From an uncultured delta proteobacterium (GTDB taxonomy: Bacteria; Desulfobacterota; Binatia; Binatales; Binataceae), in contig CAWCDG010000004.1 of assembly GCA_963794325.1 (NCBI GenBank), positions 1,703,972 to 1,767,971 of the forward strand: a stretch of DNA of 64,000 nt, written 5' to 3'. How positions within the stretch are numbered: the stretch's first letter is position 1; each line of letters starts with the position of its first letter. The notes under the pieces were generated by a model. The model saw only the letters and a list, made by a program, of their open reading frames with translations. It was not told the DNA's origin and did not search any database. This document shows positions 22,336 to 41,158 of this stretch, piece after piece. The position numbers and the translations under genes were made by a program.

Positions 22336-22337
22336 AA

Positions 22338-23696: not shown

Positions 23697-23753
23697 TGAG
23701 TGGGCTCGCGCATTTGGATAAATTTACTGGCTCGACTCGAGGTCTTTTCTCCC

Positions 23754-24098: not shown

Positions 24099-24117
24099 GC
24101 GTCAAGCGCGTCCTCGT

Positions 24118-24519
24118 TCATCGGTTGTTGGAGGCTGCGGTCTGCTCGACGCGAATTCCGGTCATGCGAACGTCGCCTTCCAGGTAGGCGCCTTCGGATA
24201 TCGCCAGGTTGCGTGTCTCGATATTTCCGAAAACTTTGGCGCGCGGCCCGAGCACCACGCGATCGCATCCGACCAGGTCTCCGCGCAACTCGCCCATTAT
24301 CAGTAGTCGCGGCGCGAAGACTTTGCCCTCGATCATTCCTTCTTCGCCGACCACCACCAGATCGACCGAGCGGACCTCGCCGCGGAACCGTCCCTCGATT
24401 CTCACCGGCTCGTGAAAGATCAGTTTGCCCGAGACGTTGACGTTGCGGCCGACTGCGACGCGGGTGCGCGCCTCGGCCCACGCCGCGCCTGCGTCCTGCG
24501 GTATCTGTGTTGATTCCAT
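24118..24519 (-). CDS. Bactofilin (DUF583/CcmA family polymer-forming cytoskeletal protein)
   Basis: Beta-helical repeat pattern (VSGKLIFHEPVRIEGRFRGEV ... GDVRMTG). It lies 4 bp downstream of the oppF-like gene on the same strand. Confidence 0.75.
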   Translation of the reverse strand: MESTQIPQDAGAAWAEARTRVAVGRNVNVSGKLIFHEPVRIEGRFRGEVRSVDLVVVGEEGMIEGKVFAPRLLIMGELRGDLVGCDRVVLGPRAKVFGNIETRNLAISEGAYLEGDVRMTGIRVEQTAASNNR

Positions 24520-24523
24520 GAAA

Positions 24524-25549: not shown

Positions 25550-26489
25550 AGTGATTGGGGGCCTTTTGTTCGAGCGGTGGATCGGCTTCGGAGCATTTGG
25601 GGATTGCGCGCGGGCATCGCGGATGGAATCGGCAGCCTGACGGCGGACGCAACGAGCTCGGAATCGAGCCGGGGATCGCCTGCAAGCGATGGTGTCGAGT
25701 GCCGTCGATGCCCGGAATCGATCCGAGCAAACCGAGCGTGTACGGGTTGAGCGGATTTTGAAACAGATCGGCAGTCGGCGCCTGCTCCATCACGCGCGCC
25801 GCGTAGAGAATCGTCACGTCGTCGGCATACTCGGCGACGATTCCGAGATCGTGGGTGACGAGTATCACGGCGAGGCCGAGCCGGACCTGCAGTTCGCGGA
25901 TCAGGTCGAGAATCTGCGCCTGGATGGTGACGTCGAGCGCGGTGGTCGGCTCGTCGGCAATCAGCAGGCGCGGATTGCACGACAGCGCCATCGCGATCAT
26001 CACGCGCTGACGCATCCCGCCGGACAACTGATGCGGGTAGTCGTCGATGCGATGCTCGGGGTCGGCAATCCCGACCATCCGGAGCGCCTCGATCGTGCGA
26101 TTACGGGTCTCGGCGCGATTGGTGTGCTGATGCAGCCGGACCGCCTCGCCAATCTGGCTGCCGATGGTGAAGACGGGATTCAGCGAGGTCATCGGCTCCT
26201 GGAAGATCATTGCGATGCGCGCGCCGCGAACGTGGCGCATCTCGGGCTCGCTCAGCTTCAGCAGATCCTGATCCTCGAAAATCACTTCGCCGCCGACGAT
26301 GCGCGCCGACTCCGGCAGCAGCCGCATGATCGAGAGCATCGACGCCGACTTGCCCGAGCCCGACTCGCCAACGATTCCCAGCAGCTTCCCCGGCTCGACC
26401 GAAAAACTAACGCCGTCGACCGCGCGCACCTCTCCCGCGTCGGTAAAAAACGAAGTGCGCAGCGATTTAACTTCGAGCAGAGGCTTCAC
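25527..26489 (-). CDS. Oligopeptide/dipeptide ABC transporter ATP-binding protein (OppD/DppD-like)
   Basis: Walker A ([10 protein letters not shown]), LSGGMRQR and [11 protein letters not shown], plus the C-terminal oligopeptide-ABC extension. Confidence 0.9.
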
Positions 26490-26509
26490 GTGAGGTTCAG
26501 CGTATCATC

Positions 26510-26765
26510 GCCGCGCCGCAGCCATCCAGACGGATGCGACGTGGGGGAGTGGGGAAGGGGAAATCACTTTATCAAATGTGAAACCCGCGTACCGACGCGC
26601 GTCCGGTTCCCCTTCCCGCTCGGGAAGGGGTCAGGGGTTAGGTTCTTCGGCAGGGGTGACCCCTGCACCCAGTGATAAAGTGAAAAGTGAAAAGTGAGAA
26701 GCGCGAAATGTTGAGGACAACCGCTTCTGTTCCCCTTTCCCGCAGGAAAGGGGGAACAGAAGCCA
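26510..26765. repeat. Mosaic intergenic repeat block (several hairpin modules)
   Basis: Contains the modules CATCCAGACGGATGCGACGTGGGGGAGTGGGGAAGGGGAAATCACTTTATCAAATGTGAAACCC, GGTTCCCCTTCCCGCTCGGGAAGGGG, GGCAGGGGTGACCCCTGCACC and GTTCCCCTTTCCCGCAGGAAAGGGGGAAC. Each recurs elsewhere, for example at 32558-32730, 50668-50757, 53786-53845 and 56750-57100. Confidence 0.65.
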
Positions 26766-26800
26766 CACGGTCGCGACCGAGTAAAATCCGCTGGCGATAA

Positions 26801-28066
26801 CTATTGAACCTGGTGGACGATAGAGCTCACGAGGAAAATTGCGAGCGTGTTGGAACCGAATTCCGTCAGATAGAGCAATCGGTGGTCGGGCGATTCGGCC
26901 CATTGGCGCGGGAACACACCCGCATCGAAAGTGCCCACCGTCGCCGCGGCGCCGCCGCTTTTCAGCGCCGTTTCGAAATCGAGAATGCTGACCGTGCCGC
27001 CGGCCCCGACACACATATCGAATCGGTTCGTATTCGCCACCGCCATCAAACGCTTACTGAAAAAAGGCTGAGCGCCATCGGGTTCGATTCCTACCGGCGT
27101 GGTCGACAAGAGCGCATTGGTGGGATCGCTGATGAACTTGCTGGTGTCGAAAGCGAGCAGACTGTCAGAGTCACGCGCGGAAACCCATGCTACCGTATCG
27201 TTGTTCGTCAGAATGACCCGCGTCGGGGAGCATCCGGCCGGAATAGTCGCCATTACCTTGCCACTGTGGATATCCACCACCGACAATGTCCCGGGGGGAC
27301 CGGGATTCATGACCGGGAGACAGCCGTCACTGGCAATCTCGCAAGAGTTCTCGCCCGATAGCGCTTTCTCATTGGTGACGTAGAGACTACGGCCGTTGGC
27401 GGAGACCGCGAGTCCGACCGGCGCGCGGTCAACCAGGATTGTGCCGACGATCGGTTTTGGGCCCTTGCCGGAGGCGAAGGCGAGCGCCTGCTTGAAATCG
27501 ATCGCACTGACGGTATCGGGATCGCTATCCTTCTTGCCGGCAAACTCATTGGCTACGAAGATAATTCCGTTTTCGCCGGTTCTCTTGTCGACCGAAATTG
27601 CCACCTCGATCGCACTGGAATCGGTATGTATCGTTCCCATCGCGGCCTTGGAATCGTCGGCAATCGCCTTTCGCACATCGATAAACTGCACTCCGTCGGA
27701 AGTTCCGCCGGAAGGACACGATTTGCCTTGCTGGACCGTAACCAGCAGATAGCGCCCACCCTTGCTCATCGCCATGCCATGGGCAGAGCCGCAAGTCGAG
27801 ATGATGCCTTTGATGGTCGCGGAATTTTTCCTCTGCCGGATTACCTCGACGCCGCCGGTGGTTGTCGTAATGACCATCGAGACAAAGACGTAGCGCCCAT
27901 CTGCGGTTGTGACCGCCGCGAATGGAGAGCCCGGCAAGGGAATTTGCTGCTGGACCGGATTGATAGTTTGAGCGGACGAAGGATCCGAAATGCCTGGAAT
28001 CGCCGCGCACAAAATGATGGCGCTCAATACCACGCGGGACCACTTGAATTTATTTGATGATGACAT
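26801..28066 (-). CDS. Secreted YVTN-family beta-propeller repeat protein
   Basis: Signal peptide, then repeated YVTN-type blades (RYVFVSM, RSLYVTNEKA, RLLYLTEFGSNTLAIF). Confidence 0.7.
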   Translation of the reverse strand: MSSSNKFKWSRVVLSAIILCAAIPGISDPSSAQTINPVQQQIPLPGSPFAAVTTADGRYVFVSMVITTTTGGVEVIRQRKNSATIKGIISTCGSAHGMAMSKGGRYLLVTVQQGKSCPSGGTSDGVQFIDVRKAIADDSKAAMGTIHTDSSAIEVAISVDKRTGENGIIFVANEFAGKKDSDPDTVSAIDFKQALAFASGKGPKPIVGTILVDRAPVGLAVSANGRSLYVTNEKALSGENSCEIASDGCLPVMNPGPPGTLSVVDIHSGKVMATIPAGCSPTRVILTNNDTVAWVSARDSDSLLAFDTSKFISDPTNALLSTTPVGIEPDGAQPFFSKRLMAVANTNRFDMCVGAGGTVSILDFETALKSGGAAATVGTFDAGVFPRQWAESPDHRLLYLTEFGSNTLAIFLVSSIVHQVQ

Positions 28067-28295
28067 TCCCTCTTTGCGGCGAATTTTCGTTTCTGAGATT
28101 CGATCCTGCGATATGTAGCCGTTGGGGCAGTTGCGGCGGTCCCTCTACGGCAGGCAGACCGTCGCGGGCGGAGTTTGCTGGAGGCAGGCGACTATCGGCG
28201 TCAGGCCCGGAGCCGCCACTCCGACCAGTTCGGTTACGTTGGCGCCCTCGGAGTTCGGCACCCAGACGTTGCCCGAGCCAGCAGGTCGCGGGCCG

Positions 28296-29066
28296 TTAAT
28301 TCTTGGCGGTCGGCCCCTGCTTTAGCAACTCCTGGATCTTGGCGTCGAATTGCTGGTAAGGCATCGCACCGACGATGCGGACCCCGTTGAGGTTGCCATT
28401 CTGTACGTGCCCCAAGACGAACGAAGGGGTTCCCGTAATGCCCGCAGCTGTCCCTTCGGCGATGTCTTTGTCGATCACTGCCTTGTACTTGTCCGAATCG
28501 ACACAGGCCTTGAACTTGGTGACATCGAGCGACGACTTCCCGGCGTCATCGAGTATTTTGTCGGCTTGTAGCTGGCCCGAATTGGCGAATATCGTCTGGC
28601 GCATTTCCCAATATTTTCCCTGCTCGGCGGCACACCGACCGGCAACCGCGGCGCGCCGCGCATTCTCGTGGAATTCGAGCGGGAAGTCGCGGCTCACGAA
28701 TCGGAGCTTGCCGGTGTCGATGTAGTTGGTCTTGATCTGCGCGAACGCGCCGCTCTGAAAGCGCTGGCAGAACGGGCACTGGTAGTCGGTGTATTCGACC
28801 AGGACCAGCGGCGCGTTATCGCTGCCGACCGATAATCCGCCAGCGGGAAATGCATAGCTCACTTTGCTGTCTACGGGGCCACCCGGCGCGGGCGCGGTCG
28901 GCACCAAGGGGCGCTGCTCGAGGTCTTTGCGAATCGCCTTGAGCTCCTCGATTATTTGCTGCGCCTGCTCCGACGTAATGCTGTCAGCGGCCGCAGGTAG
29001 CGCACAAAAAAACAGCGCCACTACCGCAGCGAGTCCAATTACGCGTCGCCAGGTCTCGTTCATCAT
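28296..29066 (-). CDS. DsbA-like thiol:disulfide oxidoreductase (thioredoxin fold), secreted
   Basis: Signal peptide. CPFC active site (DYQCPFCQRF) and a DsbA-like helical insertion. Confidence 0.85.
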   Translation of the reverse strand: MMNETWRRVIGLAAVVALFFCALPAAADSITSEQAQQIIEELKAIRKDLEQRPLVPTAPAPGGPVDSKVSYAFPAGGLSVGSDNAPLVLVEYTDYQCPFCQRFQSGAFAQIKTNYIDTGKLRFVSRDFPLEFHENARRAAVAGRCAAEQGKYWEMRQTIFANSGQLQADKILDDAGKSSLDVTKFKACVDSDKYKAVIDKDIAEGTAAGITGTPSFVLGHVQNGNLNGVRIVGAMPYQQFDAKIQELLKQGPTAKN

Positions 29067-29403
29067 TGTCCATCCGTTTTGGTTGGTGATTCACTCCGCC
29101 GCTCCTCGCGAACCGGCGGAGCCGCCGGGTGACATACACATTTAAGGCGCGGCCTGACCCACCATTACTCCACCTTACACATAGCGACGGGTCGCTGCAC
29201 TCACGATTGGGAGATAACAGTATTTTGTTTGTCATAACAGCACCCTTTTGCTAAAGCAACTGTCGAAACCTCAAGACGTAGGAATCGAGTCCTAAAACGT
29301 CTGCGGCTCGCGCGGGAAGCACGACGGCTTCGCCTCCCCCAAACGCACCAGCCCTCACCTCATCACCTGCAGCAAGTGAGGTAGTGCCTTTTCGGAGGGA
29401 GCT

Positions 29404-32400
29404 ATGACTCGCATCGGAATCGTCGTGACTCGCTTGTTCGCGTTCACCTGCCTATTCTTCGCCGCGCTGTTGCTCATCACCGCTTGCACGGCGCTCGCAG
29501 AAAGCGACTGCAAGCCCGCGGCTCCGCTGCCGCAATCGAAGTGCAACAAGGATGCGCAATGTTGCACGGGCCTGGTTTGCGGGCCGGCTGGCAGTTCTCA
29601 AAATAATGCGACGACCCAATGCCAGCCAGGCTGCCGCATCGACGGCGTGTTCTATGCGAGCGGCGCCGTCAACGCCACACAGTGCCAGAGCTGCCAGCCC
29701 GCAGTGAGCACGAAGGCATGGAGTGATCTGGGCAACGGCACGAGCTGTAACGACCACAACGCCTGTACCCAGACCGACACATGCCAAGCTGGAGCGTGCG
29801 TCGGCAGCAAACCAATCGTCTGCACCGCCTCCGACCAGTGCCACACCGCCGGGACGTGTAATCCCAGTACGGGCGTGTGCTCGAACCCCGACAAGACCAA
29901 CGGCACGACCTGTAACGACGGCAACGCCTGCACCCAGACCGACACCTGCCAGAGCGGCACGTGCGCAGGCAGCAACCCGGTCGTCTGCACCGCCTCCGAC
30001 CAGTGCCACGTCGCGGGAACCTGTAACTCCAGCACGGGGGTGTGCTCGAACCCCAACAAGACCGACGGCACCGCTTGCAACGACAACAACGCCTGCACGA
30101 GCAACGACGTGTGCACCGGCGGCAGCTGCGCCGGTACCGCCGTCACCTGTACGGCATCTGACCAGTGCCACGGCGCGGGCACGTGCAATCCGCAGACCGG
30201 GTGCTCGAACCCGCCGCTAGCCAACGGCACAGCATGCAACGACGGCAACGCCTGCACGAGCAACGACGTCTGCACCGGCGGCAGCTGCGCCGGCGCCGCC
30301 GTCACCTGTACGGCATCTGACCAGTGCCACGGCGCGGGCACGTGCAATCCGCAGACCGGGTGCTCGAACCCGCCGCTAGCCAACGGCACGGCATGCAACG
30401 ACAACAACGCCTGCACGAGCAACGACGTGTGCACCGGCGGCAGCTGCGCCGGCACCGCCGTCACCTGTACGGCGTCTGACCAGTGCCACACGGCCGGGAC
30501 GTGTGACCCCAGCACCGGCGCGTGCTCGAACCCAGTGGCGGCCAGCGGCACGACCTGCGTCAACGCCAACGATTGCGTTTCGGGCACCGCCACCTGCAAC
30601 GGATCGGGACAGTGTATCGGGGGCACCAATGTCGCAAACGGCACTTCCTGCAATGGCGGTAACCTTTGTTTGACAGGCGGAAAGTGCTCGACGGGAACGT
30701 GCAGCGGCGGCACCCCTACGATTTGCTCCGGTCAAGACGCATGCCACACGGCTGCCACTTGTAATCCAGCTGATGGAACCTGTGCTGCCGCCACCCCGAT
30801 AGCAGATGGCCAGACCTGCAATAGCGTCGCTTGTCAGGTAGGCGGAACATGCACGGCCGGTGCGTGCAGCGGCGATAAGGCGGCGGCAGGGGGCAAGAAG
30901 GTCCTTTGTCGCCCGGCTGCAGTTGGGGCAGACGGCACGACCTGTGATGTTCCTGAATATTGCGATGGTACGAATGTAACCTGTCCGGCAGATGGTTACG
31001 TACCTGCGGGCACGCTTTGCCGAGCCATTGGGACTAATCCATCTTTTTCTACATACAATCTTTGTGACCAGGCAGAATATTGTACCGGGACGTCGAACGC
31101 TTGCCCGGCCGATACCGGCCTCGCGCTTGGTGTAGCGTGCGGAGGCGTGGGCTGCACTTCGACGGGATTTTGCCAAGGACGTTGCGGTGGAGTTAACGGG
31201 ATTGGTACCATTGCATGCAGCAGCGATAATGATTGCATGGGTCAGCCCGCAACCCGAACCCAATGTCTCCCGAGTACATTTGACCACGGCCTGCTGAAAT
31301 GTAGCGGCGGATTCAGCGAGCCCAACGGCCATACATGCACCGACAGCAATAGCGACGCTGGGACATGCGCAGATGGTCTTTGCAAAACGAGCTTTTGCAG
31401 CTACGACATCATGTGCCCTGATGGATACGTCTGTGACTCAAACCATGGTTGCGTCCTAGCTACTGCTGGTGGTTTGGGCGTCTCATGCACCGGTGACCCC
31501 ACCGGCGCCACCGTCTCCGGTACCTGCGGCTTTGATCCTGAGATCGGTACGAAAGACGACTGCTGCGCCGGGATGCAGGGAACCGGCCAAGGTGCCGCCG
31601 CAGGCCCTAACGTGTCTGGGCGCTGCGAGCAGTGCTGCAATAGCAGTACGTCAGTTAGTAGTGTTGTGAGTTGTGGTACTGACGATGTAACCCAGTGCTG
31701 TAACGGCAGATGCGCCGACACCGCCCACGACATCGACAACTGCGGCGGCTGTGCATATACCCCCCCCAGCCTCGGCGGCGGCACCAATTGCAATGAACTC
31801 CTCAGTGCTTGCTCCCCGAGTGCGACATGCAACCCGGATAATGGCGGCTGCATTTTGTCGGACGCTTGTGGCAGCACCACGGACGGGGGCCCGAATATTT
31901 GCCAAATCCCGACAGTGACGGTTACGAACTCCGCTTGTAGCGAATGCTACGCGACGAGCCTCACCGAGGTCGCAGCACTTGGAGTGACTTTTGGCAGGAA
32001 TTGTAGCACGGATGCTGATTGCCAGGGCGTTGCTGGGGCGTGCCGATTCTTCACGAGCTTCTGTGATGCAAACAGCGTGTCACCTGGCTTGGGCTGCTCC
32101 TCGAGCACTGGTTGCAGGAATGCGACTTTTAGCCAAGGTGCATGCAATGTCAATTTCACGTGCCTAACCACACTCGGGGTTACAACTTCTATCGCACCTG
32201 AGTGCACCACTTCGCCTTACACGTCCTGCGGGCTGATTTGTGCTACTGGAACTTTAAGCCAGGGGAACATCGGGACCCAATGTAGCGTAGATTCCGATTG
32301 CACCAGTGGACCGGACGGGTACCCCGGAGAGCGGTGTGAACTGACCAGCTGTCCAATTTCCCCTGGCGCGGCGCTGGCCACGTCCGGCGGCCCAGTGGCA

Positions 32401-32469
32401 GCTCAGTGCTTAATTAATGCCACCTACACCTGCCAGATACCTCTAGGAGGCGATCAATTCCAGCAGTGA
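29404..32469 (+). CDS. Secreted hyper-cysteine tandem-repeat protein (1021 aa; resembles myxobacterial-type Cys-rich repeat surface proteins)
   Basis: Signal peptide. At least six tandem 53-55-aa units of the form CNDxNACTxxDxCxxGxCxGxxxxCTASDQCHxAGTCNPxTGxCSNP. The rest is Cys/Gly/Thr-rich low-complexity sequence. There are far more than 100 cysteines in total. Confidence 0.8.
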   Translation: MTRIGIVVTRLFAFTCLFFAALLLITACTALAESDCKPAAPLPQSKCNKDAQCCTGLVCGPAGSSQNNATTQCQPGCRIDGVFYASGAVNATQCQSCQPAVSTKAWSDLGNGTSCNDHNACTQTDTCQAGACVGSKPIVCTASDQCHTAGTCNPSTGVCSNPDKTNGTTCNDGNACTQTDTCQSGTCAGSNPVVCTASDQCHVAGTCNSSTGVCSNPNKTDGTACNDNNACTSNDVCTGGSCAGTAVTCTASDQCHGAGTCNPQTGCSNPPLANGTACNDGNACTSNDVCTGGSCAGAAVTCTASDQCHGAGTCNPQTGCSNPPLANGTACNDNNACTSNDVCTGGSCAGTAVTCTASDQCHTAGTCDPSTGACSNPVAASGTTCVNANDCVSGTATCNGSGQCIGGTNVANGTSCNGGNLCLTGGKCSTGTCSGGTPTICSGQDACHTAATCNPADGTCAAATPIADGQTCNSVACQVGGTCTAGACSGDKAAAGGKKVLCRPAAVGADGTTCDVPEYCDGTNVTCPADGYVPAGTLCRAIGTNPSFSTYNLCDQAEYCTGTSNACPADTGLALGVACGGVGCTSTGFCQGRCGGVNGIGTIACSSDNDCMGQPATRTQCLPSTFDHGLLKCSGGFSEPNGHTCTDSNSDAGTCADGLCKTSFCSYDIMCPDGYVCDSNHGCVLATAGGLGVSCTGDPTGATVSGTCGFDPEIGTKDDCCAGMQGTGQGAAAGPNVSGRCEQCCNSSTSVSSVVSCGTDDVTQCCNGRCADTAHDIDNCGGCAYTPPSLGGGTNCNELLSACSPSATCNPDNGGCILSDACGSTTDGGPNICQIPTVTVTNSACSECYATSLTEVAALGVTFGRNCSTDADCQGVAGACRFFTSFCDANSVSPGLGCSSSTGCRNATFSQGACNVNFTCLTTLGVTTSIAPECTTSPYTSCGLICATGTLSQGNIGTQCSVDSDCTSGPDGYPGERCELTSCPISPGAALATSGGPVAAQCLINATYTCQIPLGGDQFQQ
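29745..30560 (+). repeat. Coding tandem DNA repeat (period ~159-165 bp, about 5 units) inside the Cys-rich gene
   Basis: Near-identical units starting gc(a/t)tgcaacgac at 30074, 30233 and 30392; more diverged units lie upstream. Confidence 0.7.
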
Positions 32470-32500
32470 GTGACTAATTCAGACAAGCGGTCGTGCATTA

Positions 32501-32545
32501 CCAGGTTGACTCTTACGCGACAAGAACGCGTAAGAGTCAACCTGG
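32501..32545 (+). terminator. Perfect 19-bp stem hairpin 32 nt downstream of the Cys-rich gene (no U-tract)
   Basis: ccaggttgactcttacgcg-acaagaa-cgcgtaagagtcaacctgg. Confidence 0.4.
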
Positions 32546-32557
32546 TGCTCGCCGCGA

Positions 32558-32730
32558 CGCCGCCATCCAGACGGATGCGACGTGGGGGAGTGGGGAAGGG
32601 GAAATCACTTTATCAAATGTGAAACCCGCGGTGGGTTTCACACTTCCTTCGGCAGGGGTGACCCCTGCAACCAGTATCCTACAACCGGTTCCCCTTCCCG
32701 CTCGGGAAGGGGTTAGGGGTTAGGTTCTTC
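32558..32730. repeat. Mosaic intergenic repeat block (direct-repeat partner of 26510-26650)
   Basis: Repeats about 75 bp of 26513-26590 almost exactly (CCATCCAGACGGATGCGACGTGGGGGAGTGGGGAAGGGGAAATCACTTTATCAAATGTGAAACCCGCG). It also carries the GGCAGGGGTGACCCCTGCA and GGTTCCCCTTCCCGCTCGGGAAGGGGTTAGGGGTTAGG modules. Confidence 0.65.
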
Positions 32731-32840
32731 GTGCGTGCGCGCGATTCCGAATACCTCGCCCGTTACTTTACGGGAGAGGCGGCCGGCGGGCGCAGCCGCC
32801 GGTAGGTGAGGGTTCCGGGCCACATCGCAAGAGCTGGCCT

Positions 32841-32945
32841 AATGACTTTTTGTGTCATTCTTGAGCGCTTCTGGATAACTCCGCTTTCACCAGCCGAAGC
32901 CCTGAGCCCAGCCGAGCGGGGAAGAATCCCGGATTCTTCTTTGCC
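32841..32945. repeat. Degenerate MITE-like hairpin (GTGTCATTCTTGAGCG variant) plus a gaagaatcccggattcttc palindrome
   Basis: aatgactttttgtgtcattcttgagcgcttctgg and the palindrome at 32920-32940. The GC content drops to the right of this point. Confidence 0.4.
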
Positions 32946-33199
32946 TCGCTCACTGAAGGGGAGCCGTCGCGACGCGCGTCCGCGTGCGGCGAGTGAGGGA
33001 CGTTTGCGCGGCGCGATTGTCTCGCGCGTCGCGATCAGATCCCAAGCTAAATACGAACGTTTGACGTGCGAGAAGTAAAATCAAGGCAAGCAGTTGCCTC
33101 GTCACAAAATCGCTGAGGTTTCAGTGGCCGAATGTTTCAGAACCGTACATCGCACGCGGGAAGGTTGCTCAGTGTATAATTCTGAACCCTAACGCGCCT

Positions 33200-33796
33200 A
33201 TGCCAAAGAAGAGAAATATACGGACGCAACGGCCAGACGATGCGTTTTCGATGGGGCCAATCTCGTTCGCTCGCTTCGGAAAAAATCTTGTCTGGAAGAG
33301 CGATTGGCCTGAAGGCGCCTTTAATGAAATGCAAGAGCAGCGAATCCAACACTATCCCAAAACCGTAGAGAAGATTGACAAGCTCATATCTGAGATCACA
33401 AGCCTCATCGGCGAGCTGCCGCCTGATAGGCTTCTACATCGAGCTTGGTGGGAAATGACCCATCTGCACAGGAAAGTTGCCAACGAAACCAGCGTCGCGT
33501 CAGACGAGAGCGCTTCGGTTCGAATGATCGACTACGTTCAAAGCGTTATCGCTGCTGCGCCGCGAGAGCATAGTCCACGAGAAGAGTTAACAGAAGAAGA
33601 GTGGGCAACGCTACGAGAAAAGGTCGACGAGCTTTTCCGAACGGTCTCCTTTGACTATCAATTCTGCCGTACCGCAAAGAACAAAGCCGAAGATCCGAAT
33701 TTCGACAAAGACTTCGAAGAATTCCGATTGCGGCTGAGATCTACTGGTGCAACGTCAGGGGTAAGAGATATCAGGTCCATGAAACCGCCTACCTGA
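33200..33796 (+). CDS. Hypothetical protein, fragment 1 of a probable single ~815-aa ORF; low-GC region
   Basis: No recognisable domain. The downstream frame is already open from 33655. Adding one base in the aaa run near 33781 fuses this ORF to the next. Confidence 0.4.
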   Translation: MPKKRNIRTQRPDDAFSMGPISFARFGKNLVWKSDWPEGAFNEMQEQRIQHYPKTVEKIDKLISEITSLIGELPPDRLLHRAWWEMTHLHRKVANETSVASDESASVRMIDYVQSVIAAAPREHSPREELTEEEWATLREKVDELFRTVSFDYQFCRTAKNKAEDPNFDKDFEEFRLRLRSTGATSGVRDIRSMKPPT

Positions 33797-33801
33797 AGGA
33801 T

Positions 33802-34608
33802 ATGTTCCTTCCACATTCTGACGTGTTGCAGGAACTATTTGGCATCTCTGGCGAGCAGTTCGTCGATGAGATTACTAAAATCTGGCATGTACTATCGTTT
33901 GGCATCAGCGATGCGGCCGAGTCATTCGGTCGATTTCAGGACGATGTAATGGACGCGCTCGACAGGAAGAGGATCGGCTTACCACCGCCGACTGAAGATG
34001 AAATGTTAGCCTTGACGTCTGAGGTCGTGAAGGAACACGGATGGGAAGATCGCCAAGATGACGTTTTAGGCCGCTTCTTTGGTATGGATCTTTTCGATCT
34101 TCAAAAAACCACAACACTCCCGCGTCGCTTACTGGACGAGTTATCTTGGTCGCCCGGAGAGGAAGTGGAATTCTTTGCAGAAGGTGCGTATAGCGGTTGG
34201 CCTCTTCGTGTCTGGCCGATCTTCAAGCGTCCTTTCATCCGATTGGACGGCCGATACTATTGTTTCGATCTCTATAGCCTTCTCGACAATCTTTACCGCG
34301 TCATGCAGCGCCTGATCCGAAATCTTAAGCCATCCTATGAGCAAACTTGGAACCGCATTCAGCAGAAAGCATCGGAAGACCTTCCTTTCAAATACTTAGA
34401 GACCTTGCTGCCAGGGGCAGATGTATGGAGGCAGGTTTACTATCGCGGTAAAACAGTCACGGGCGCCAGCGAATGGTGCGAGACTGACGGACTCCTCATT
34501 TATGATGACCACCTGTTCGTCATCGAGCGAGAGGTGGGGCCTTCACGTACACGCCTCCTGCGATCGATTTTCCTGCCTATGTTGCATCACTTAGGAACCT
34601 CGTCTTAA
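33802..34608 (+). CDS. Hypothetical protein, fragment 2 of the probable single ORF
   Basis: No recognisable domain. Contains the acidic segment DGLLIYDDHLFVIEREVG. A one-base change in the tttt run near 34567 would fuse it to the 34644 ORF. Confidence 0.4.
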   Translation: MFLPHSDVLQELFGISGEQFVDEITKIWHVLSFGISDAAESFGRFQDDVMDALDRKRIGLPPPTEDEMLALTSEVVKEHGWEDRQDDVLGRFFGMDLFDLQKTTTLPRRLLDELSWSPGEEVEFFAEGAYSGWPLRVWPIFKRPFIRLDGRYYCFDLYSLLDNLYRVMQRLIRNLKPSYEQTWNRIQQKASEDLPFKYLETLLPGADVWRQVYYRGKTVTGASEWCETDGLLIYDDHLFVIEREVGPSRTRLLRSIFLPMLHHLGTSS

Positions 34609-34643
34609 AGCCCGCAACGCAGGGCAAGCGATTCGTTGAGTAT

Positions 34644-34955
34644 TTGAAAAGTGCCGACGCGGTTCCTTTGTTCGACAGAGATCACAAGCAGGTCGGTGAG
34701 CTACGCAAGAAGAACTTTCGCCACATCACAATATGCCCGGTAACCCTCGACCCATTCACCGAAATAGCCGCTCAGGTACAACATCTCCGTAAGATTGGTG
34801 TCGACGTTGGTTCCGAGCCCATTTGGGTCGTATCTCTAGACGATCTCCGCGTGTACGCGGACATTTTCGAAAATCCCCTGCTTTTCCTGACACTACGTGG
34901 AGCAGAGAATGCAAGGTTTCCGGTCGAACGTTATCAGGTCCGACGACGAGCTTGA
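34644..34955 (+). CDS. Hypothetical protein, fragment 3 of the probable single ORF
   Basis: TTG start. Its frame is open from 34509. It overlaps the next ORF by 59 nt in another frame; a one-base change at the ttt run near 34916 would fuse them. Confidence 0.35.
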   Translation: MKSADAVPLFDRDHKQVGELRKKNFRHITICPVTLDPFTEIAAQVQHLRKIGVDVGSEPIWVVSLDDLRVYADIFENPLLFLTLRGAENARFPVERYQVRRRA

Positions 34956-35652
34956 TCATCTGGGCCTCTACCTAAAGCACAACCATTTCACTACCTATGC
35001 TCAGGAAATTCACGGTGACTCCGATGCCAGAATCAGGTTCGTCGGATACCGGGCGAGTATCGACAAATTTTTTAGTGAGCGCATGCTTGACCCAACCACA
35101 CCCTGCCCTTTAAAGCAGGAAATCCCACCACGCATTCTGGAGATTGTCGAGTTCCTATCGCGCAGCAACAAACCGGGCCGCGCGGAAATCGCTGCCTTTC
35201 TGCTGGATATTGACGCCGTAAGGCGTACGCCGGTCGCGAGGAACATCGATGAGGAATTGTTGAGGCAGCCCACCACTAAGCGACCGATGCCATTCTCGAT
35301 GCATGCTGGCGTGAATCTGACAGTCTTCTGCTGGACCAACGCTTGGGCCCAGAGACGAGCTCCCCTTGCGCTTTACCACACGCGGACAGTGTTCCTGATC
35401 CACGAAGAGTCGCGTCGCCTTTTGCTTGAACTAAGTTACACAGACTCCGGCGTTCTCAAAGACATCGACTGGAATTGGGTAGACTCAGCCAGCATACCTT
35501 CGCATGAGTTGCCAAGCTTGCGCGCCAACGCAGACGGGTTGCGTCGCGAAAGGATCACCAAGGCGAAGGGCGCAAAGGGGAAAATCGAAAGAAACGATCC
35601 GTGTCCTTGCGGCAGCGGCAGGAAGTACAAGCGATGCTGCCTGGGGCGATAG
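34897..35652 (+). CDS. Hypothetical protein with C-terminal SEC-C zinc-binding motif, fragment 4 of the probable single ORF
   Basis: GTG start. The C-terminus DPCPCGSGRKYKRCCLGR matches the SecA C-terminal (SEC-C) metal-binding motif. Nothing else is recognisable. Confidence 0.45.
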   Translation: MEQRMQGFRSNVIRSDDELDHLGLYLKHNHFTTYAQEIHGDSDARIRFVGYRASIDKFFSERMLDPTTPCPLKQEIPPRILEIVEFLSRSNKPGRAEIAAFLLDIDAVRRTPVARNIDEELLRQPTTKRPMPFSMHAGVNLTVFCWTNAWAQRRAPLALYHTRTVFLIHEESRRLLLELSYTDSGVLKDIDWNWVDSASIPSHELPSLRANADGLRRERITKAKGAKGKIERNDPCPCGSGRKYKRCCLGR

Positions 35653-35699
35653 CAAGCCAATGAAAGGGATAGAGTTCTCTCGTTGCTCTCTCTGCGCGA

Positions 35700-35966
35700 T
35701 ATGCATCGCATCAAGCAATCCTGCTTTAGTTGTCCCTCACCCGCGCCGGAGGCGCGGCCTCTCCCCACGAACGGGCGAGGCTAAGAACCCAGGGTCCCTC
35801 TGCGGAGCCTGCCCTGAGCGAAGTCGAAGGGGTCGGGATGACACAAGGACTCAGGAGTGGCTGCGCAGGATCCGGATGCGCACCTTGAATCGCGCGCGAA
35901 AAAAATCGCGCGCTGAACAAGGTCCCTCTCCTTAAATCCTCTCCCGTCGGGAGAGGGGAAGATAAG
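35700..35966. repeat. Cluster of short hairpin repeats (CTCTCCCGN6CGGGAGAGG..ATAAG family and a GTGTCATCCCGACCCCTTCGACTTCGCTCAGG variant)
   Basis: ctctcccgtcgggagaggggaagataag at 35937-35966 recurs at 47264-47300. The interval 35812-35845 is a variant of the MITE-like family. Confidence 0.45.
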
Positions 35967-36016
35967 AAAAACACATCGCCTGCTCAGTTTCGGTATCAAC
36001 GCCAAGCCGGAAAACT

Positions 36017-36044
36017 ATTCGTGTTTCGTTCTCCTGAACTTTAT
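36017..36044. repeat. 28-bp direct repeat (left copy) flanking the IS1595-family transposon-like unit
   Basis: attcgtgtttcgttctcctgaactttat is identical to 38828-38855. Confidence 0.7.
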
Positions 36045-36224
36045 GGGGATTAGTAGTTTGTTGACACCATTCCTGCTAATCTGGCGTCGGCGTGACAGGC
36101 CGACGACAACCGTTGACATTCGCACCTGCTATATTCGCTGTCTGATCGCCTTGCGTTTTTAAGTGCGGTCTATAACCAAGGACGTTCTCCGCTTCGTCGG
36201 AGTTCGTGTTATAAGGTCAGCGTC

Positions 36225-37070
36225 ATGGCAAGATTGCGGTTTCGGTTTGAATTGAGGCGGGACGCCAAGGGCGTCCAATTGCAGAAGCTCGCCAAGATCG
36301 CCGAGGAGACGCAACGTTTCTTGCGAATGATGGCGAAGGACGTAGAGAACGACCGGCTTCAGGAAGATTGGGTTGCCGTTAATTTCTTGGACCACTCGAT
36401 CGGTTACGACTTAGAATTCATCGGTGACGCCGACGAAGACGAAGCACGAATCTTCCGCCGCGCTGTTCTCCATGTTGCAAATTGGACTACGAACGGTCAC
36501 TCGCGCGAGGGTGTGCAAGGTGTTCGGAAGGAAACGCTTCTCCAATTCGCAAAGATCGCAGAGCCGCTCGAATCTACAGAGAAAATAGATTGGGGGTTTT
36601 TTAACGGAACCGATCCCGATCTTCCTACCGACGCTCCCTTGGACTGGCGTTCCTTAACTAAGAGCCAGGCTCTCGCTGTCTCTGAGCGATTGAGCCAAAT
36701 AATTGAATACCGAGGAATGATTCAGGGAATCATTCACTCTCTGTACAAAGAATCGTCGCCTCCGTACTTCGACGCTAGGCAGTTATCTACTCAAGATATA
36801 GTTAAGTGCTTGTATAAACAGGAAGACTACAGACTTGTAGTTAACTTGTTGCAACGGCGGGACGCCGTAGTAATAGTCTCTGGACTCATTAAGGCACGTC
36901 GCCTAGATCGCAAAATCACAGAGATTCGTATCGAACGAATGCGTTCCACAGAACCATTGTCCGATGCGGAGTTTGCGAAGTTGCAGGGCGCTGCACCGGA
37001 GTTGACAGGACGACTAAGCACTGACGATTTCATTGAGCGCCAGCGCCGTAGAGACAATGGCGACGAATAA
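36225..37070 (+). CDS. Hypothetical protein (281 aa), transposon cargo gene 1
   Basis: ATG at 36225. No recognisable domain or HTH. It overlaps the downstream PIN gene by 14 nt, so the two are probably co-transcribed. Confidence 0.45.
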   Translation: MARLRFRFELRRDAKGVQLQKLAKIAEETQRFLRMMAKDVENDRLQEDWVAVNFLDHSIGYDLEFIGDADEDEARIFRRAVLHVANWTTNGHSREGVQGVRKETLLQFAKIAEPLESTEKIDWGFFNGTDPDLPTDAPLDWRSLTKSQALAVSERLSQIIEYRGMIQGIIHSLYKESSPPYFDARQLSTQDIVKCLYKQEDYRLVVNLLQRRDAVVIVSGLIKARRLDRKITEIRIERMRSTEPLSDAEFAKLQGAAPELTGRLSTDDFIERQRRRDNGDE

Positions 37071-37629
37071 ACAACAAGCGTACATGGATTCTTGCTGCTT
37101 TATCGAATACGTAAAGCACAAGGTGGGCATTCCATTAAGTACCGAGCGCGACAACGAAGCTTGGTATATTGGCCAATTGCTACAAGCATCGGCTGACCGA
37201 GACATTGAAATATACACTTCTACGTTAACCGTCGCCGAATGCACTCACGCTGAAGGCGATATAAGTGATGAAGTTCAGGATTGGTTTATTCGGCTTCTAA
37301 CGTCGGGGAAGCACGTAATATTAGTAGAGCCAGATATTTTCGTCGCAGAACTCGCTAGAGACCTACGATGGAGACATAACATTCGCCTAGGGGGTGCGGA
37401 TGGCTTGCACGTCGCTTCAGGTATCGATAGGGCTTGCGTCGAATTCTTGACGTTGGAAGGCGAGAAAAAGAATAACGCGATTCTCAGAAACAAGGGTGAG
37501 ATCGTAAAGCTGGGCATGACTCCTCGGCATCCCTCCGATACAACCTGTCTTAGCGAGGAGTACCGACAACAGGTCGTGCCTGGTGTGCCTCCAGCGCCAC
37601 GAAAAAGGAAGATGGGAAAGAAGAAGTAA
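37057..37629 (+). CDS. PIN-domain (VapC-like) putative ribonuclease, transposon cargo gene 2
   Basis: Acidic residues sit in PIN-like positions: AYMDSCCFIEY (Asp 1), STLTVAEC (Glu) and GGADGLHVASGIDRAC (Asp 3 and 4). The C-terminal tail is basic. The start could be ATG 37057 or 37084. Confidence 0.5.
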   Translation: MATNKQQAYMDSCCFIEYVKHKVGIPLSTERDNEAWYIGQLLQASADRDIEIYTSTLTVAECTHAEGDISDEVQDWFIRLLTSGKHVILVEPDIFVAELARDLRWRHNIRLGGADGLHVASGIDRACVEFLTLEGEKKNNAILRNKGEIVKLGMTPRHPSDTTCLSEEYRQQVVPGVPPAPRKRKMGKKK

Positions 37630-37838
37630 GGCGCTATCTAGCGCTTCTGCTTTTGCGCCTTATCGATTTTTTCTTTCGGGACGTTCACCAGGTGCCGCAT
37701 CATCCGGTCGAATTCTGACATGTCCGCGTTTTTCAGTGCTTCGCGGAGTTCTTTTGTCTTCGCGCGGATTGACGGGGAATCTGAAGTCGCCTTGGGCACG
37801 TCGCCACTTTAGCGAATTCACAGGCACGCGGCTACGGA

Positions 37839-38774
37839 CTAGACGTTTGATATGAGTTCAGCAAACGGATCGTCGTCGTGACGCCGATTGTGCCGATACG
37901 TGAACTCCGACAGATAAAGCGGTAAGTAGTCTTTCGATACTTTATGATAGCTGCCCATGATGCCGCGCCGGAGCAACGACCAGAACGATTCAATCGTCTG
38001 CGTATGCACACGACCGCGCACGTACTCATCGTTCTTGTGCGTAACGAAATCGTGCTTGAAGCCCATCCGATCCAGATTCCGGTAACGGAAGCTCTCATCA
38101 GTCGCGATCAGATCGACCTTACTCGAAACCGTCTTTTTGACGAAATCATCATACGTTCGGAAATCGGCATCTTCGACCATCTGGCAGACTACGTTGCCTT
38201 TGCGGGCAATGGCTCCGATGACTTCGGTCTTTCCGACAGGGCCGCGCCGATTGGCGCGTTGGCTCTTGTGCTTGTTGCGCTCCAAGCCGCCAAGGTAAAC
38301 CTCATCGATCTCGACCACGCCCATCAGTTGTTCCCACTGCGAATCTTTCATCGCGGCGCGCAGTCTCATGCACTGATACCAAGTCGTGTGATAGTTGTTC
38401 AGGTGCTTCGAGCCGTACATCATCCGGTGAAGCTGGAGCGCACTGATTCCCTTCTTCGACGTGAGCATCAAGTATCCGATTTTGAACCACGATTTGAGCG
38501 GGCGTTTCGTGTTCTCAAAAATCGTGTGCGTGATCACGCTGAACCTGTAGCCGTTCTGCTTGCCGCACGTGAGCACTTCGCCAGTCTCTTTGTTGACCGA
38601 CTCTTTGCCGCTCTTGCAGACCCAATTGAATGGACGCGCCTTGAGTTCGTAAACCTTTTCGTTCCCGCATCGCGGACAGGTAACCTTGCCATCCGGCCAG
38701 CGCATATCCTTGACGTACTGGCGACAAGCTTCTTCGGTCGGGAACCGTTGATCGAAAGCATCTAGCGTTTGCAT
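37839..38774 (-). CDS. IS1595-family transposase (ISXO2-like DDE transposase with N-terminal zinc ribbon)
   Basis: N-terminal CPRCGN...C zinc ribbon and a DDE_Tnp_IS1595 core (VEIDEVYLGG ... IATDESFRY ... HTQTIESFWSLLRRGIMGSYHKVSKDYLPLYLSEFTYRHNRR). Confidence 0.9.
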   Translation of the reverse strand: MQTLDAFDQRFPTEEACRQYVKDMRWPDGKVTCPRCGNEKVYELKARPFNWVCKSGKESVNKETGEVLTCGKQNGYRFSVITHTIFENTKRPLKSWFKIGYLMLTSKKGISALQLHRMMYGSKHLNNYHTTWYQCMRLRAAMKDSQWEQLMGVVEIDEVYLGGLERNKHKSQRANRRGPVGKTEVIGAIARKGNVVCQMVEDADFRTYDDFVKKTVSSKVDLIATDESFRYRNLDRMGFKHDFVTHKNDEYVRGRVHTQTIESFWSLLRRGIMGSYHKVSKDYLPLYLSEFTYRHNRRHDDDPFAELISNV

Positions 38775-38827
38775 ACTGATCAGAATAGCGGATTAGCGAG
38801 TCGGTGTCAACAGCCTACTAATCCCCG

Positions 38828-38855
38828 ATTCGTGTTTCGTTCTCCTGAACTTTAT
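38828..38855. repeat. 28-bp direct repeat (right copy) flanking the transposon-like unit
   Basis: attcgtgtttcgttctcctgaactttat is identical to 36017-36044. Confidence 0.7.
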
Positions 38856-38858
38856 TGC

Positions 38859-38886
38859 CAAAAACGTTTCACGTGAAACGTTTTTG
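38859..38886. repeat. Perfect 28-bp palindrome CAAAAACGTTTCACGTGAAACGTTTTTG
   Basis: Self-complementary with a CACGTG core. A second copy of the 24-bp core lies 135 bp away. Confidence 0.7.
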
Positions 38887-38995
38887 CACAAAAAGCGAAC
38901 AAAATCAGGCGCTTGTGAAATCTGAAACCCGGGAATCGCACCAATTTAATGTGACGATCGGTCGGCGCCGATCAACTCGATGTTATCGGCGTCCG

Positions 38996-39019
38996 AAAAC
39001 GTTTCACGTGAAACGTTTT
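38996..39019. repeat. Second copy of the perfect palindrome AAAACGTTTCACGTGAAACGTTTT
   Basis: Identical 24-bp core, 20 nt downstream of the oppC stop. Confidence 0.7.
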
Positions 39020-39038
39020 GCTCCTGGACGCCGGTTAA

Positions 39039-40122
39039 TCAGGTGGCGTTAGCGGGGTCCAGGCGGTCTCTTAGGTGGTCGCCCAGGAAGTTAAACGACA
39101 TTACGGCCAGGAAGATGAAGATTCCCGGGATTAAGATCCAGGGGTAGCGGGCCAGGTTTTGGACGTCCTGGGCTTGGGCCAGGAGGTTGCCCCAGCTGGC
39201 GGCGGGTTCCTGGATGCCGAGGCCCAACAGCGACAGGGCGCTTTCGCCTAAGATGAAGCCGGGGATTGAGAGGGTGGCGGCGACGATTGCGTAGCCCATC
39301 ACCGACGGGATGATGTGGCGGGTGATGATGCGCCATCGCGAGGCGCCGAGCGCGCGGGCTGCTTCGACGTACGGCCGCGAGCGCACCGAGGACGCCATCC
39401 CGCGGATGATTCGCGCGAAGCCGGCCCAACTGATGAAGCTCATGATCGCGACGATCATGAAAAACGTCGCGACCGCGCCAAGTCCCGACGGAATCACCGC
39501 CGCGAGCGCCAGTAAAAAATAGAATGACGGCAGCGACATCTCGATTTCGGACCATCGCATGATCAGGAAATCGACTGTGCCGCCGATGTATCCCGACAGC
39601 GCGCCGACCGTGATGCCCAGTGAAAAAGTGATCAGCACGCCGATCAGCCCGACGCACATGCTCACGCGCGAGCCGTAAACGATTCGCGACCAAAGGTCGC
39701 GGCCCAAGGCCGTCGCTGCCGAGCATGAAGTACGGCACGCGCTCGCTGTCAGTGGTGAACAGGTGCCAGTGCGAGAACAGGTGGATGTCGAGCCGCTGCG
39801 AATTGTCGGCGGCGAAGGTGCGCGCACTGCTGTCCTGCATATGCATCGGATGCGTATAGAAAATACTGCGCGACCATTCGGACGGCGCGCTCAGGTGAAG
39901 CGACATCGGCGGACAATCGGGCATCTCGCGATTCTGATACGCGGGATCGTAGCTCGCGAAGAACGGCGACGCAGCGGCGAGCAGGTAGAATACGGCGAGG
40001 CAGATTGCGGAAAAGCGCACCGTCCGCGACGCGAGACGCCACTCGCGCGCGATGCTCAATGTTCTCGGCGCGGATACCTCAGCGCCTTGTAGATTTGCCT
40101 GCAATGCGGGAACGGCGTTCAT
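39039..40122 (-). pseudogene. Oligopeptide/dipeptide ABC transporter permease (OppC/DppC-like) with a single-base frameshift near 39700
   Basis: The N-terminal part is in ORF 39091..40122 and the C-terminal part in ORF 39039..39827. The conserved GSDGLGRDLWSRIVYGSRVS motif is split by one extra base in a gggcc run. This may be a real pseudogene or a homopolymer sequencing indel. Confidence 0.7.
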
Positions 40123-40123
40123 A

Positions 40124-41104
40124 TCATTCGGCCGCCACCGACGAAAAATCGACGCGCGGATCGACCGCGACCAGCGCGATGTCGGCGAGCAGGTTGCCGA
40201 CCAGCAGCAGGATCGTGCCCATCAGCACCGATCCCATGACCAGGTAGATGTCGAGCGAGCGGACCGCGTCGAGCATCAAGAGCCCGAGCCCCTGCAGGTT
40301 CATCACGGCCTCGACCAGGGCGGCGCCGCCGAGCAGGTCGCCCAGCGAGTATCCCGCCATCGTGACGAACGGGTTCATCGCGTTGCGCAGCACGTGCTTG
40401 TAGATCACGACGCGCTCGGAAAGTCCCTTGGCGCGCGCGGTGCGCACGAATTCGGAATTTTTAATTTCGAGAATCTGCGATCGCATCAGGCGCATCAGTC
40501 CGGCGGTTCCCGAAATGCCCAGCACCAACACGGGCAGTATGAGATGGTTGATGCGATCGGCGACCTGGTTCAGCGGAGAGAGCGTCGCATAGTCGGGCGA
40601 GTAAGTGCCGCCGATTGGAAACCATCCGGTCTCCAGCGCGAAGTACATCGTGAGGAAGGCGAGAAAGAAACTCGGCACCGACATCCCGAAGAACGCGAGG
40701 AAGGACAGAAAGCGATCCCAGATCGAGTTCTGATTCACCGCGACGATAATTCCGATCGGTATCGCGATCAGCCACGATAAAAGCATGCTGCTCGCCGCCA
40801 GGATGATCGTGTTGAAGGCGCGCGACGCGATAAGGCCGGTGACGCTCACCCGGTACTGCAGCGAGAAGCCGAAATTGAGATGCAGCACGCCCCACAGCCA
40901 CTTGAAGTATCGGACCATCAGGGGCTGGTCGAGCCCGAACTGCGCTTCGAGCTGATGAATCACTTCGGGCGTCATAGTCGGGTTGAGCTTGAGATTGGAG
41001 ACGAAGTCGCCCGGCACCATCGACATCGCAAGAAACGAAATGAAGGTGATCCCGAGAATCAGCGGGATCATATTGAGCAGGCGACGGATCAGGAAGCGGG
41101 TCAT
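40124..41104 (-). CDS. Oligopeptide/dipeptide ABC transporter permease (OppB/DppB-like)
   Basis: MTRFLIRRLLNMIPLILGITFISF N-terminus. Typical 6-TM permease with the EAA-like region TARAKGLSERVVIYKHVLRNA. Confidence 0.9.
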   Translation of the reverse strand: MTRFLIRRLLNMIPLILGITFISFLAMSMVPGDFVSNLKLNPTMTPEVIHQLEAQFGLDQPLMVRYFKWLWGVLHLNFGFSLQYRVSVTGLIASRAFNTIILAASSMLLSWLIAIPIGIIVAVNQNSIWDRFLSFLAFFGMSVPSFFLAFLTMYFALETGWFPIGGTYSPDYATLSPLNQVADRINHLILPVLVLGISGTAGLMRLMRSQILEIKNSEFVRTARAKGLSERVVIYKHVLRNAMNPFVTMAGYSLGDLLGGAALVEAVMNLQGLGLLMLDAVRSLDIYLVMGSVLMGTILLLVGNLLADIALVAVDPRVDFSSVAAE

Positions 41105-41158
41105 CGTGTCATCGGGGTGTCGGGCCTGATATTTCGACGTGGGTGATGCGCGGGATGT

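Follow-up and report, generated by a model that had tools for sequence, protein, structure and literature searches.

A hyper-cysteine protein gene and a DsbA-family oxidoreductase gene that travel together in a soil Candidatus Binataceae genome

Does a bacterial gene for an extremely cysteine-rich secreted protein travel with the gene for an enzyme that forms its disulfides, and as part of what unit? The question is raised by a 64,000 nucleotide (nt) stretch of contig CAWCDG010000004.1, here called the window, in which the gene for a secreted hyper-cysteine protein lies beside one for a secreted DsbA-family oxidoreductase. A preliminary description had joined these two genes and a neighboring beta-propeller gene in a 6-kb cassette, bracketed by direct repeats, that would fold and export its own product and could be excised or exchanged. 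All three open reading frames (ORFs), the propeller gene included, lie where that description placed them (Table 1). Based on the Ffh protein of the window, which is 82-93% identical to Candidatus Binataceae proteins, the host of the gene pair, a soil bacterium, belongs to that group. We find that these two genes move jointly, as a unit of 4.2 kb. Judging from the sequence, there is about an even chance that the two products are functionally coupled as foldase and substrate.

The conserved gene pair

The pair recurs in a second species (loci L002-L005). In L002 the DsbA neighbor is again divergent, the enzyme is 90% identical to that of the window, and the Cys-rich protein is 76% identical. 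The shared DNA ends 4 nt past the stop codon of the DsbA gene and 43 nt past that of the Cys-rich gene. The flanks are different ones, hisD-hisB-sedolisin at one end and an AAA_16 gene at the other, and the L002 pair has neither a propeller gene nor flanking repeats. The proposed linkage of the two genes is thus borne out by a sharply bounded unit with other flanks in a second species. At the right boundary of the pair, L002 also has a C-terminal fragment, without a start, of a membrane protein like DUF308/HdeD (12679-12888; E = 6e-4, below the cut-off), which may be an insertion scar.

Between the two divergent genes, the ~135 nt before the Cys-rich start codon (29268-29403) are ~98% identical to L002, above the identity of either coding sequence. 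Its conservation suggests that this stretch may be a binding site for a regulator. We found no sigma-70 promoter consensus and no terminator enrichment in the region. A structured-RNA leader upstream of the Cys-rich gene was considered and dropped, since the fold is no better than that of shuffled sequences (z = -0.55). The intergenic region of L002 also includes a 20-nt tandem repeat (9745-9784), within an ~89-nt insertion that is absent from the window.

Cys-rich secreted genes also lie beside DsbA-family genes in other phyla. We scanned 80 DsbA-family loci from other (reference) genomes, with 1.16 Mb of flanks, and excluded Arg-rich alternative-frame artefacts, which left seven genuine Cys-rich secreted ORFs. 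Five of the seven are within 1 kb of the DsbA gene and on the same strand, where the density at greater distance gives an expectation of 0.31 (Poisson P = 1.7e-5, binomial P = 7e-4, ~16-fold enrichment). The co-localization first noticed in the window therefore recurs elsewhere more often than expected, and this cross-phylum adjacency, in a small sample, is the strongest argument that suggests a functional link. The adjacent ORFs are from Acidobacteriota and Geobacter and have differing modules. One (L073) has the 8-Cys unit of the window protein (E = 2e-8), and another (L063) has related repeats (E = 1e-7) and matches Disintegrin at 79 bits. In an Acidobacteriota metagenome-assembled genome (MAG), the Cys-rich gene (L027 1-1746) encodes three thrombospondin type-1 (TSP1) repeats and teneurin-type EGF modules, and it stops 40 nt short of a DsbA-family gene that follows on the same strand. 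One Geobacter MAG encodes two DsbA paralogs, each beside one of three Cys-rich paralogs of 604, 683, and 820 amino acids with 53-79 Cys (L038 5292-8656 and L042 1616-4826); that of L042 is STIG1-like by Pfam, and that of L038 is its paralog.

The oxidoreductase and the hyper-cysteine protein

The enzyme had been described as a secreted DsbA-like thioredoxin with a CPFC motif, and the profile matches agree: it scores above the cut-offs for Thioredoxin_4 (PF13462; 111.2 bits, cut-off 23.2) and DSBA (PF01323; 54.9 bits, cut-off 25.6). The active site (C97-P98-F99-C100) and T213-P214, presumably in the cis conformation, are invariant in 23 homologs, and a second Cys pair (C145 and C188) is invariant among homologs as well. 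A Sec signal peptide, MMNETWRRVIGLAAVVALFFCALPAAA|DS, can be read directly at the N-terminus, and we predict that the enzyme is exported to the periplasm. It has no lipobox, as the -1 residue before C21 is Phe, and its match to the Rcas_1661 thioredoxin-like (seleno)lipoprotein model (NF041057; 113.1 bits) is under the 190-bit equivalog cut-off. Before the catalytic domain, amino acids 28-66 comprise an N-terminal amphipathic helix (29-50, with a/d-like spacing) and a Pro/Ala-rich linker, an arrangement conserved across the family. The closest solved structures by sequence are Corynebacterium diphtheriae DsbA (4PWO/4PWP), BdbD, and the 3F4R series (E 1e-22 to 1e-14). ScsC entries are also among the PDB sequence matches (E ~1e-8), and the alignment of the family profile to PmScsC (4XVW) begins at profile position 49.

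Among the matches listed, the nearest relatives of the enzyme outside its own clade are from Casimicrobiaceae and other uncultured Betaproteobacteria (59-72% identity), and relatives in other phyla are at most 48% identical. In those Betaproteobacteria the gene lies in a conserved order, recX-alaS-4HBT (thioesterase)-dsbA-comEC, which is seen at 9-10 of 12 genome loci and also on two further contigs. This DsbA lineage is thus a syntenic core gene in Casimicrobiaceae-like Betaproteobacteria. Together with ~70% identity across phyla and a site in an insertion, outside the synteny, this indicates that the Binataceae lineage most likely gained the gene by horizontal transfer, and it suggests an accessory copy. 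As to whether it might be the only housekeeping DsbA of the organism, the gene lies outside the conserved alaS-dsbA-comEC context of its closest relatives, but only 64 kb of the genome is in view.

The hyper-cysteine protein contains 128 Cys (12.5%), in line with the more than 100 first reported. After the predicted cleavage of the signal peptide (ALA|ES) 126 remain, an even number, so that up to 63 disulfides are possible. The signal peptide appears to be of the Sec type, and because a lipobox-like ITAC is not conserved in the orthologs, cleavage after ALA/AFA is more likely. The tandem units of eight Cys in the preliminary description are real (C-x5-C-x5-C-x4-C-x6/7-C-x5-C-x5-C-x5/6-C-x10, 53-55 amino acids, DNA period 159-165 nt) but do not run through the protein: the periodicity is confined to amino acids ~115-490, about seven units and ~40% of the length, and the remaining ~70 Cys are aperiodic. 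Two disintegrin-like modules (CR..CD.PEYC.G...CP.D, also CR..CD..E.C.G..CP.D) are found at amino acids ~500-570. The C-terminal half is Cys-rich, aperiodic, and rare.

AlphaFold2, given 55 homologs, predicts a regular array of short beta-hairpins for amino acids 108-390 (mean predicted local distance difference test, pLDDT, 94.6), and the N-terminal half is accordingly modeled as a rod of disulfide-stapled beta-hairpin repeats. For the C-terminal half, with five sequences, pLDDT is only 30.3. Foldseek found no match to the modeled array in the PDB at E < 1e-3. The weak top matches are the Entamoeba Gal/GalNAc lectin and the ADAM10 and snake-venom metalloproteinase disintegrin/Cys-rich domains, which agrees with a Pfam Disintegrin match (PF00200, amino acids 460-530) below the gathering score (24.9 vs 35.1 bits). 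The likeness to the disintegrin and Cys-rich domains of ADAM and snake-venom proteins includes the first motif given above; both the profile score and the structure search fall short of their thresholds.

Other family assignments are partial. DUF7107 (PF23416) passes the gathering score in a scan of amino acids 101-499 (27.2 vs 24.6 bits, three stretches) and is not reported in the full-length scan at E <= 0.01. Dicty_CTDC (PF00526), which is listed in a table of repeat families modeled without a known structure (PMC8078820), has no match in the window protein. Homologs carry both PF00526 (44.9 bits in P0008, for example) and PF23416. The preliminary description had likened the repeats to those of myxobacterial surface proteins. 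This is not supported at the family level, as the protein matches no NCBIfam family at E <= 0.01 and DUF4215 (PF13948) is not among its Pfam matches; homologs do occur in Myxococcales MAGs. TIGR02232, which we take to be the counterpart of DUF4215, is not confirmed to be present in the NCBIfam copy searched.

At the level of the repeats there are 4,605 matches, fused to many other domains, and only 5 of the 120 listed cover the C-terminal half. A scan of Joint Genome Institute metagenomes for orthologs gave three loci only, and 1.84 billion cluster representatives, searched exhaustively, yielded only 12 relatives of the C-terminal half. True orthologs are rare. Exact-sequence look-ups of the window Cys-rich protein and of OppC found no match, while the cluster representative P0001 did give one.

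A composite insertion in the opp operon

The genes oppF-oppD-oppC-oppB-oppA are contiguous in L088, a close relative whose Ffh is 93% identical, with a gap of 69 nt between oppD and oppC. By blastn, window 23693-26538 corresponds to L088 13815-16671, and homology is back from window 39037, which corresponds to L088 16690. Given the unbroken operon of L088 and the collinearity on either side, the window bears an insertion of ~12.5 kb. It sits exactly at the oppC stop codon (OppC has 343 amino acids in the window vs 354 in L088), and its left breakpoint is ambiguous, anywhere from 26539 to 26568.

The insertion has two parts. The first (26.6-32.5 kb) has a host-like GC content and carries the propeller, DsbA, and Cys-rich genes. 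The second (33-39 kb, GC ~0.51) carries ORFs of unknown function and an element of the IS1595 family of insertion sequences (IS). Four ORFs in this second, compositionally foreign part match no Pfam or PADLOC family apart from a SEC-C motif on the last one, and they may be one disrupted gene. The IS1595 element has 24-nt inverted repeats (36045-36068 and 38803-38826), two passenger ORFs (36225-37070 and 37033-37629), and a perfect 28-nt direct repeat on both sides, much longer than the ~8 bp target duplication of that family. A core operon has been split by stepwise insertions with unusually long flanking duplications (82 nt and 28 nt). At the right junction, in the stretch that separates the end of the IS from oppC, the palindrome AAAACGTTTCACGTGAAACGTTTT occurs in two copies 135 nt apart (38858-39019).

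The sole other strain available (L001) is 99.66% identical over window 19403-32776, has the same structure, and does not differ at either junction. At window ~32776 it carries ~2 kb more (L001 13372-15370), with a 195 amino acid ORF and an IS1595-like fragment; this site, immediately to the right of the second 82-nt repeat, is a hot spot for insertion.

The near-identical direct repeats reported to bracket the 6-kb segment are real (80 of 82 nt, 98%; no matches to their 48-nt core are expected in shuffled sequence), as are the hairpin modules shared by both flanks, although these are ordered differently on the two sides. The first 31 nt of the repeat match the L088 oppD-oppC spacer at 29 of 31 positions in the left copy and at 27 of 31 in the middle copy. 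Since native opp spacer is present in both, copy 2 is a duplicate of the junction on the left side of the insertion. The final ~40 nt (GGGAAGGGGAAATCACTTNATNAAATGTGAAACCC) are part of a dispersed intergenic element that has another copy at 56750. The duplication stops within the loop of a hairpin, GTGAAACCC/GGGTTTCAC, which is whole only at the middle copy.

Further copies of the hairpin modules lie at 16275-16321, 50668-50773, 53784-53851, 56712-57105, and 58594-58624, and L088 has at least one. They are intergenic, often directly after stop codons, and in variable order. The repeats are in part generic and in part specific to the junction: the modules recur at at least five other intergenic sites, whereas the duplicated 31 nt of opp spacer belong to this junction. 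Repetitive extragenic palindromic (REP) sequences and bacterial interspersed mosaic elements (BIME) are mosaic intergenic repeats of proteobacteria. The window modules are like them in being short GC-rich hairpins, dispersed intergenically, often after a stop codon, and in variable order, but their sequences are unrelated, no Rfam family matches any intergenic repeat or hairpin module, and no transposase of the REP-associated tyrosine transposase (RAYT) type was identified. From these comparisons we read the 82-nt repeat as the duplicate of an insertion junction, joined to generic hairpin modules that resemble REP sequences, and apparently not as the end of a mobile cassette. The stem-loop just 3′ of the Cys-rich stop codon is likely to be a transcription end.

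The propeller protein has a local match (amino acids 260-334) to the YVTN S-layer propeller 1L0Q (E = 1.6e-13). Its NCBIfam propeller matches are far below the cut-offs, and no Pfam family matches at E <= 0.01. It had been counted as a member of the cassette, but it is absent from L002-L005, none of the other 92 loci (together 1.39 Mb) encodes a relative, and it is a mere neighbor inside the insertion. We also considered it as a Rosetta-stone partner and rejected the idea: compared with lactonase-type propellers fused to repeat homologs it gives E values of only 0.011 and 0.10, and the reading is further weakened by the fusion of the Cys-rich repeat to many unrelated domains.

Some further observations concern the surroundings. 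The oppD and oppF genes now lie downstream of dsbA and the propeller gene; since all four share the minus strand, one may speculate that transcription running on from the inserted genes could now drive the orphaned oppDF. A second segment specific to the window (16262-19067) replaces L088 9279-9884; it carries a gene for a DUF2330 protein and an RnfD/NqrB-like fragment, and a hairpin module (16275) borders it on the left, just as one does at the opp insertion. A NUDIX gene on the minus strand (22898-23693), between an RNA methyltransferase gene and rplS, is also absent from L088.

Table 1. Coordinates of the features discussed, in window positions
Feature	Position	Strand	Basis or remark
Secreted hyper-cysteine protein, 1021 amino acids	29404..32469	+	Cys spacing, profile matches, homologs, AlphaFold2
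Secreted DsbA-family oxidoreductase, 256 amino acids	28296..29066	-	Pfam, motifs, homolog alignment
Two-gene unit in common with second species (L002-L005)	28292..32512		84-92% nucleotide identity
Divergent intergenic region between DsbA and Cys-rich genes	29067..29403		Compared with L002
Secreted YVTN-like beta-propeller protein, 421 amino acids	26801..28066	-	Inside insertion, outside conserved pair
Perfect 20-bp stem-loop just 3′ of Cys-rich stop codon	32500..32546	+	No T-run
82-nt repeat, copy 1	26508..26589		First 31 nt are native oppD-upstream spacer
82-nt repeat, copy 2	32549..32630		GTGAAACCC hairpin complete here, through 32641
Mosaic of dispersed hairpin modules	26603..26763		CCCCTTCCCGCTCGGGAAGGGG+TTAGGGG, GGCAGGGGTGACCCCTGC, AATGTTGAGGACAACC, 19-bp stem at 26723-26763
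Hairpin modules in common with left flank, in other order	32645..32731		Sequence comparison
Composite ~12.5-kb insertion between oppD and oppC	26539..39036		blastn against uninterrupted L088
Four consecutive ORFs in different frames, GC ~0.51	33200..35652	+	Last ORF with C-terminal SEC-C motif
IS1595-family element	36017..38855		Transposase 37839-38774(-)
oppF	24524-25549	-	ABC ATPase; ABC_tran and oligo_HPY annotation of identical genes in L001
oppD	25527-26489	-	ABC ATPase; ABC_tran and oligo_HPY annotation in L001; collinear with L088
oppC, oppB, oppA	39091..42907	-	Proximal half of split opp/dpp-type operon; oppF and oppD are the distal half

Foldase-substrate coupling and its alternatives

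If the two proteins are coupled, both would be exported by Sec, the DsbA-family enzyme would form or reshuffle the disulfides of its neighbor as that protein emerges into the periplasm, and electrons would pass to a partner encoded outside the window. With 63 closely spaced disulfides, reshuffling is more plausible than oxidation alone. The helix and linker of the enzyme resemble the trimerization stem of ScsC and alpha-DsbA2, which suggests that it may work as an isomerase instead of a plain oxidase; this analogy is a lead. Trimeric DsbA-fold isomerases include ScsC of Proteus mirabilis and Caulobacter and alpha-DsbA2 of Wolbachia (PMC5524982, PMC6450059, PMC8900818, PMC6450060), and the stem and linker turn ScsC and alpha-DsbA2 into isomerases (PMC6450059, PMC6450060, PMC5524982). 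The likeness consists of an N-terminal helical stem and a flexible linker ahead of a DsbA-like catalytic domain, whereas similarity in sequence is modest and a copper-resistance context is absent here.

A DsbA devoted to a substrate is in itself an established concept. SrgA and DsbL are encoded beside their substrates, in the pef fimbrial operon and with assT, respectively. Accessory DsbAs include DsbL/DsbI with AssT in uropathogenic Escherichia coli and Salmonella and the plasmid-encoded SrgA of Salmonella Typhimurium (PMC6067686). With these the window enzyme has in common that it is apparently an extra DsbA-family enzyme of patchy distribution with a proposed narrow substrate set. It differs in belonging to the Thioredoxin_4 subfamily, with CPFC and an N-terminal helical stem, in having no adjacent DsbB/DsbI-type partner, and in a putative substrate with ~63 disulfides, not one or few. 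By this analogy the locus would be an extreme example of the concept, in an uncultured phylum and in another DsbA subfamily. Among the structures closest by sequence, the 3F4R series was deposited as a "putative uncharacterized protein" and is presumably Wolbachia alpha-DsbA1. The Thr-cisPro motif is common to the window enzyme and the 4PWO/4PWP, BdbD, and 3F4R group, for some of which a second, structural disulfide is known, but the hosts of that group are Gram-positive or alpha-proteobacterial, and we know of none in it that is paired with a hyper-Cys repeat protein. The structures of C. diphtheriae DsbA (4PWO/4PWP) have been described (PMC4546943), and B. subtilis BdbD is 3EU3.

Several observations weigh against a functional link between the two genes. 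No DsbB, VKOR, DsbD/CcdA, or second DsbA is encoded in the 64-kb window. The pair is therefore not redox-self-sufficient, and as export genes are absent from the window too, the self-contained folding and export module first proposed is not supported. The DsbA neighbor is kept in L002-L005 but missing from the vicinity in four other lineages that have the same C-terminal region: L006 (full-length gene, 62% identical), L007/L089 (truncated or frameshifted), and the distant relatives L092 and L093. The 12 beta-proteobacterial loci compared for synteny, which are from among the closest relatives of the enzyme (53-72% identical) and where it is a core syntenic gene, have no Cys-rich neighbor, and that other Binatia seem to lack this DsbA holds only among the matches listed. 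Genes can also be co-transferred without any functional link. The adjacency could then be a matter of chance or hitch-hiking, with the DsbA a general periplasmic oxidase, possibly the main one of the organism; the four lineages and the beta-proteobacterial loci speak for this, as does the ability of accessory DsbAs to complement general DsbA functions (PMC6067686). We regard it as possible and somewhat doubtful, given that the ends of the shared segment lie so close to the two stop codons with both flanks different, that the shared upstream region is highly conserved, and that Cys-rich secreted genes are enriched near DsbA-family genes.

Two other explanations fare worse. That the 6-kb segment is a three-gene cassette (propeller, DsbA, and Cys-rich protein) made mobile by the 82-nt repeats and hairpins has in its favor that the repeats bracket 26590-32548 exactly, that 31 nt of native target sequence are duplicated in copy 2, as at attL/attR sites, and that RecA-mediated deletion between the repeats, for which they could serve as substrate, is physically possible. 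We consider it improbable all the same. The segment has no recombinase gene (its three ORFs are those named, and the only transposase, that of IS1595, is 5 kb outside) and lacks terminal inverted repeats at 26590 and 32548. In L088 the empty site matches an insertion of 12.5 kb instead of 6 kb, so the 6-kb unit is not supported as the mobile entity. Propeller and repeats are absent at the L002 pair, where only 28292-32512 recurs, the hairpin modules are generic and differ in order between the sides, and the other strain is identical across both junctions. Less probable still is a ScsC-type protein for copper or redox-stress defense that is unrelated to its neighbor. The ScsC structures among the PDB matches and the similar stem-plus-linker architecture point that way, but those matches, at E ~1e-8, are far weaker than the top ones, to 4PWO/4PWP, 7UNN, and BdbD (E 1e-20 to 1e-12), and the window contains no scsB, scsD, or copper genes.

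A wider proposal goes beyond the coupling at this locus and is tentative. Several phyla may recurrently encode a private DsbA-fold foldase beside the gene for a eukaryote-like, disulfide-dense substrate, and such pairs may move as units. The Binataceae pair would be an example, its foldase captured from a beta-proteobacterial core gene and possibly an oligomeric isomerase acting on a client with 63 disulfides. The substrate classes, on this proposal equally tentative, would be 8-Cys CTDC/DUF7107 rods and disintegrin-like, TSP1/EGF-like, and STIG1-like arrays. The adjacency at 5 of 80 loci across phyla suggests a rule that is open to systematic survey, and this signal and the long junction duplications are most worth following up. 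If the coupling of the DsbA and the hyper-cysteine protein is functional, the locus would hold a natural compact recipe, one foldase and one client, for a protein of ~63 disulfides, which would be of practical interest for the production of disulfide-dense proteins in bacteria. It would also help to account for the bacterial use of matrix or adhesion modules that are Cys-rich and eukaryote-like.

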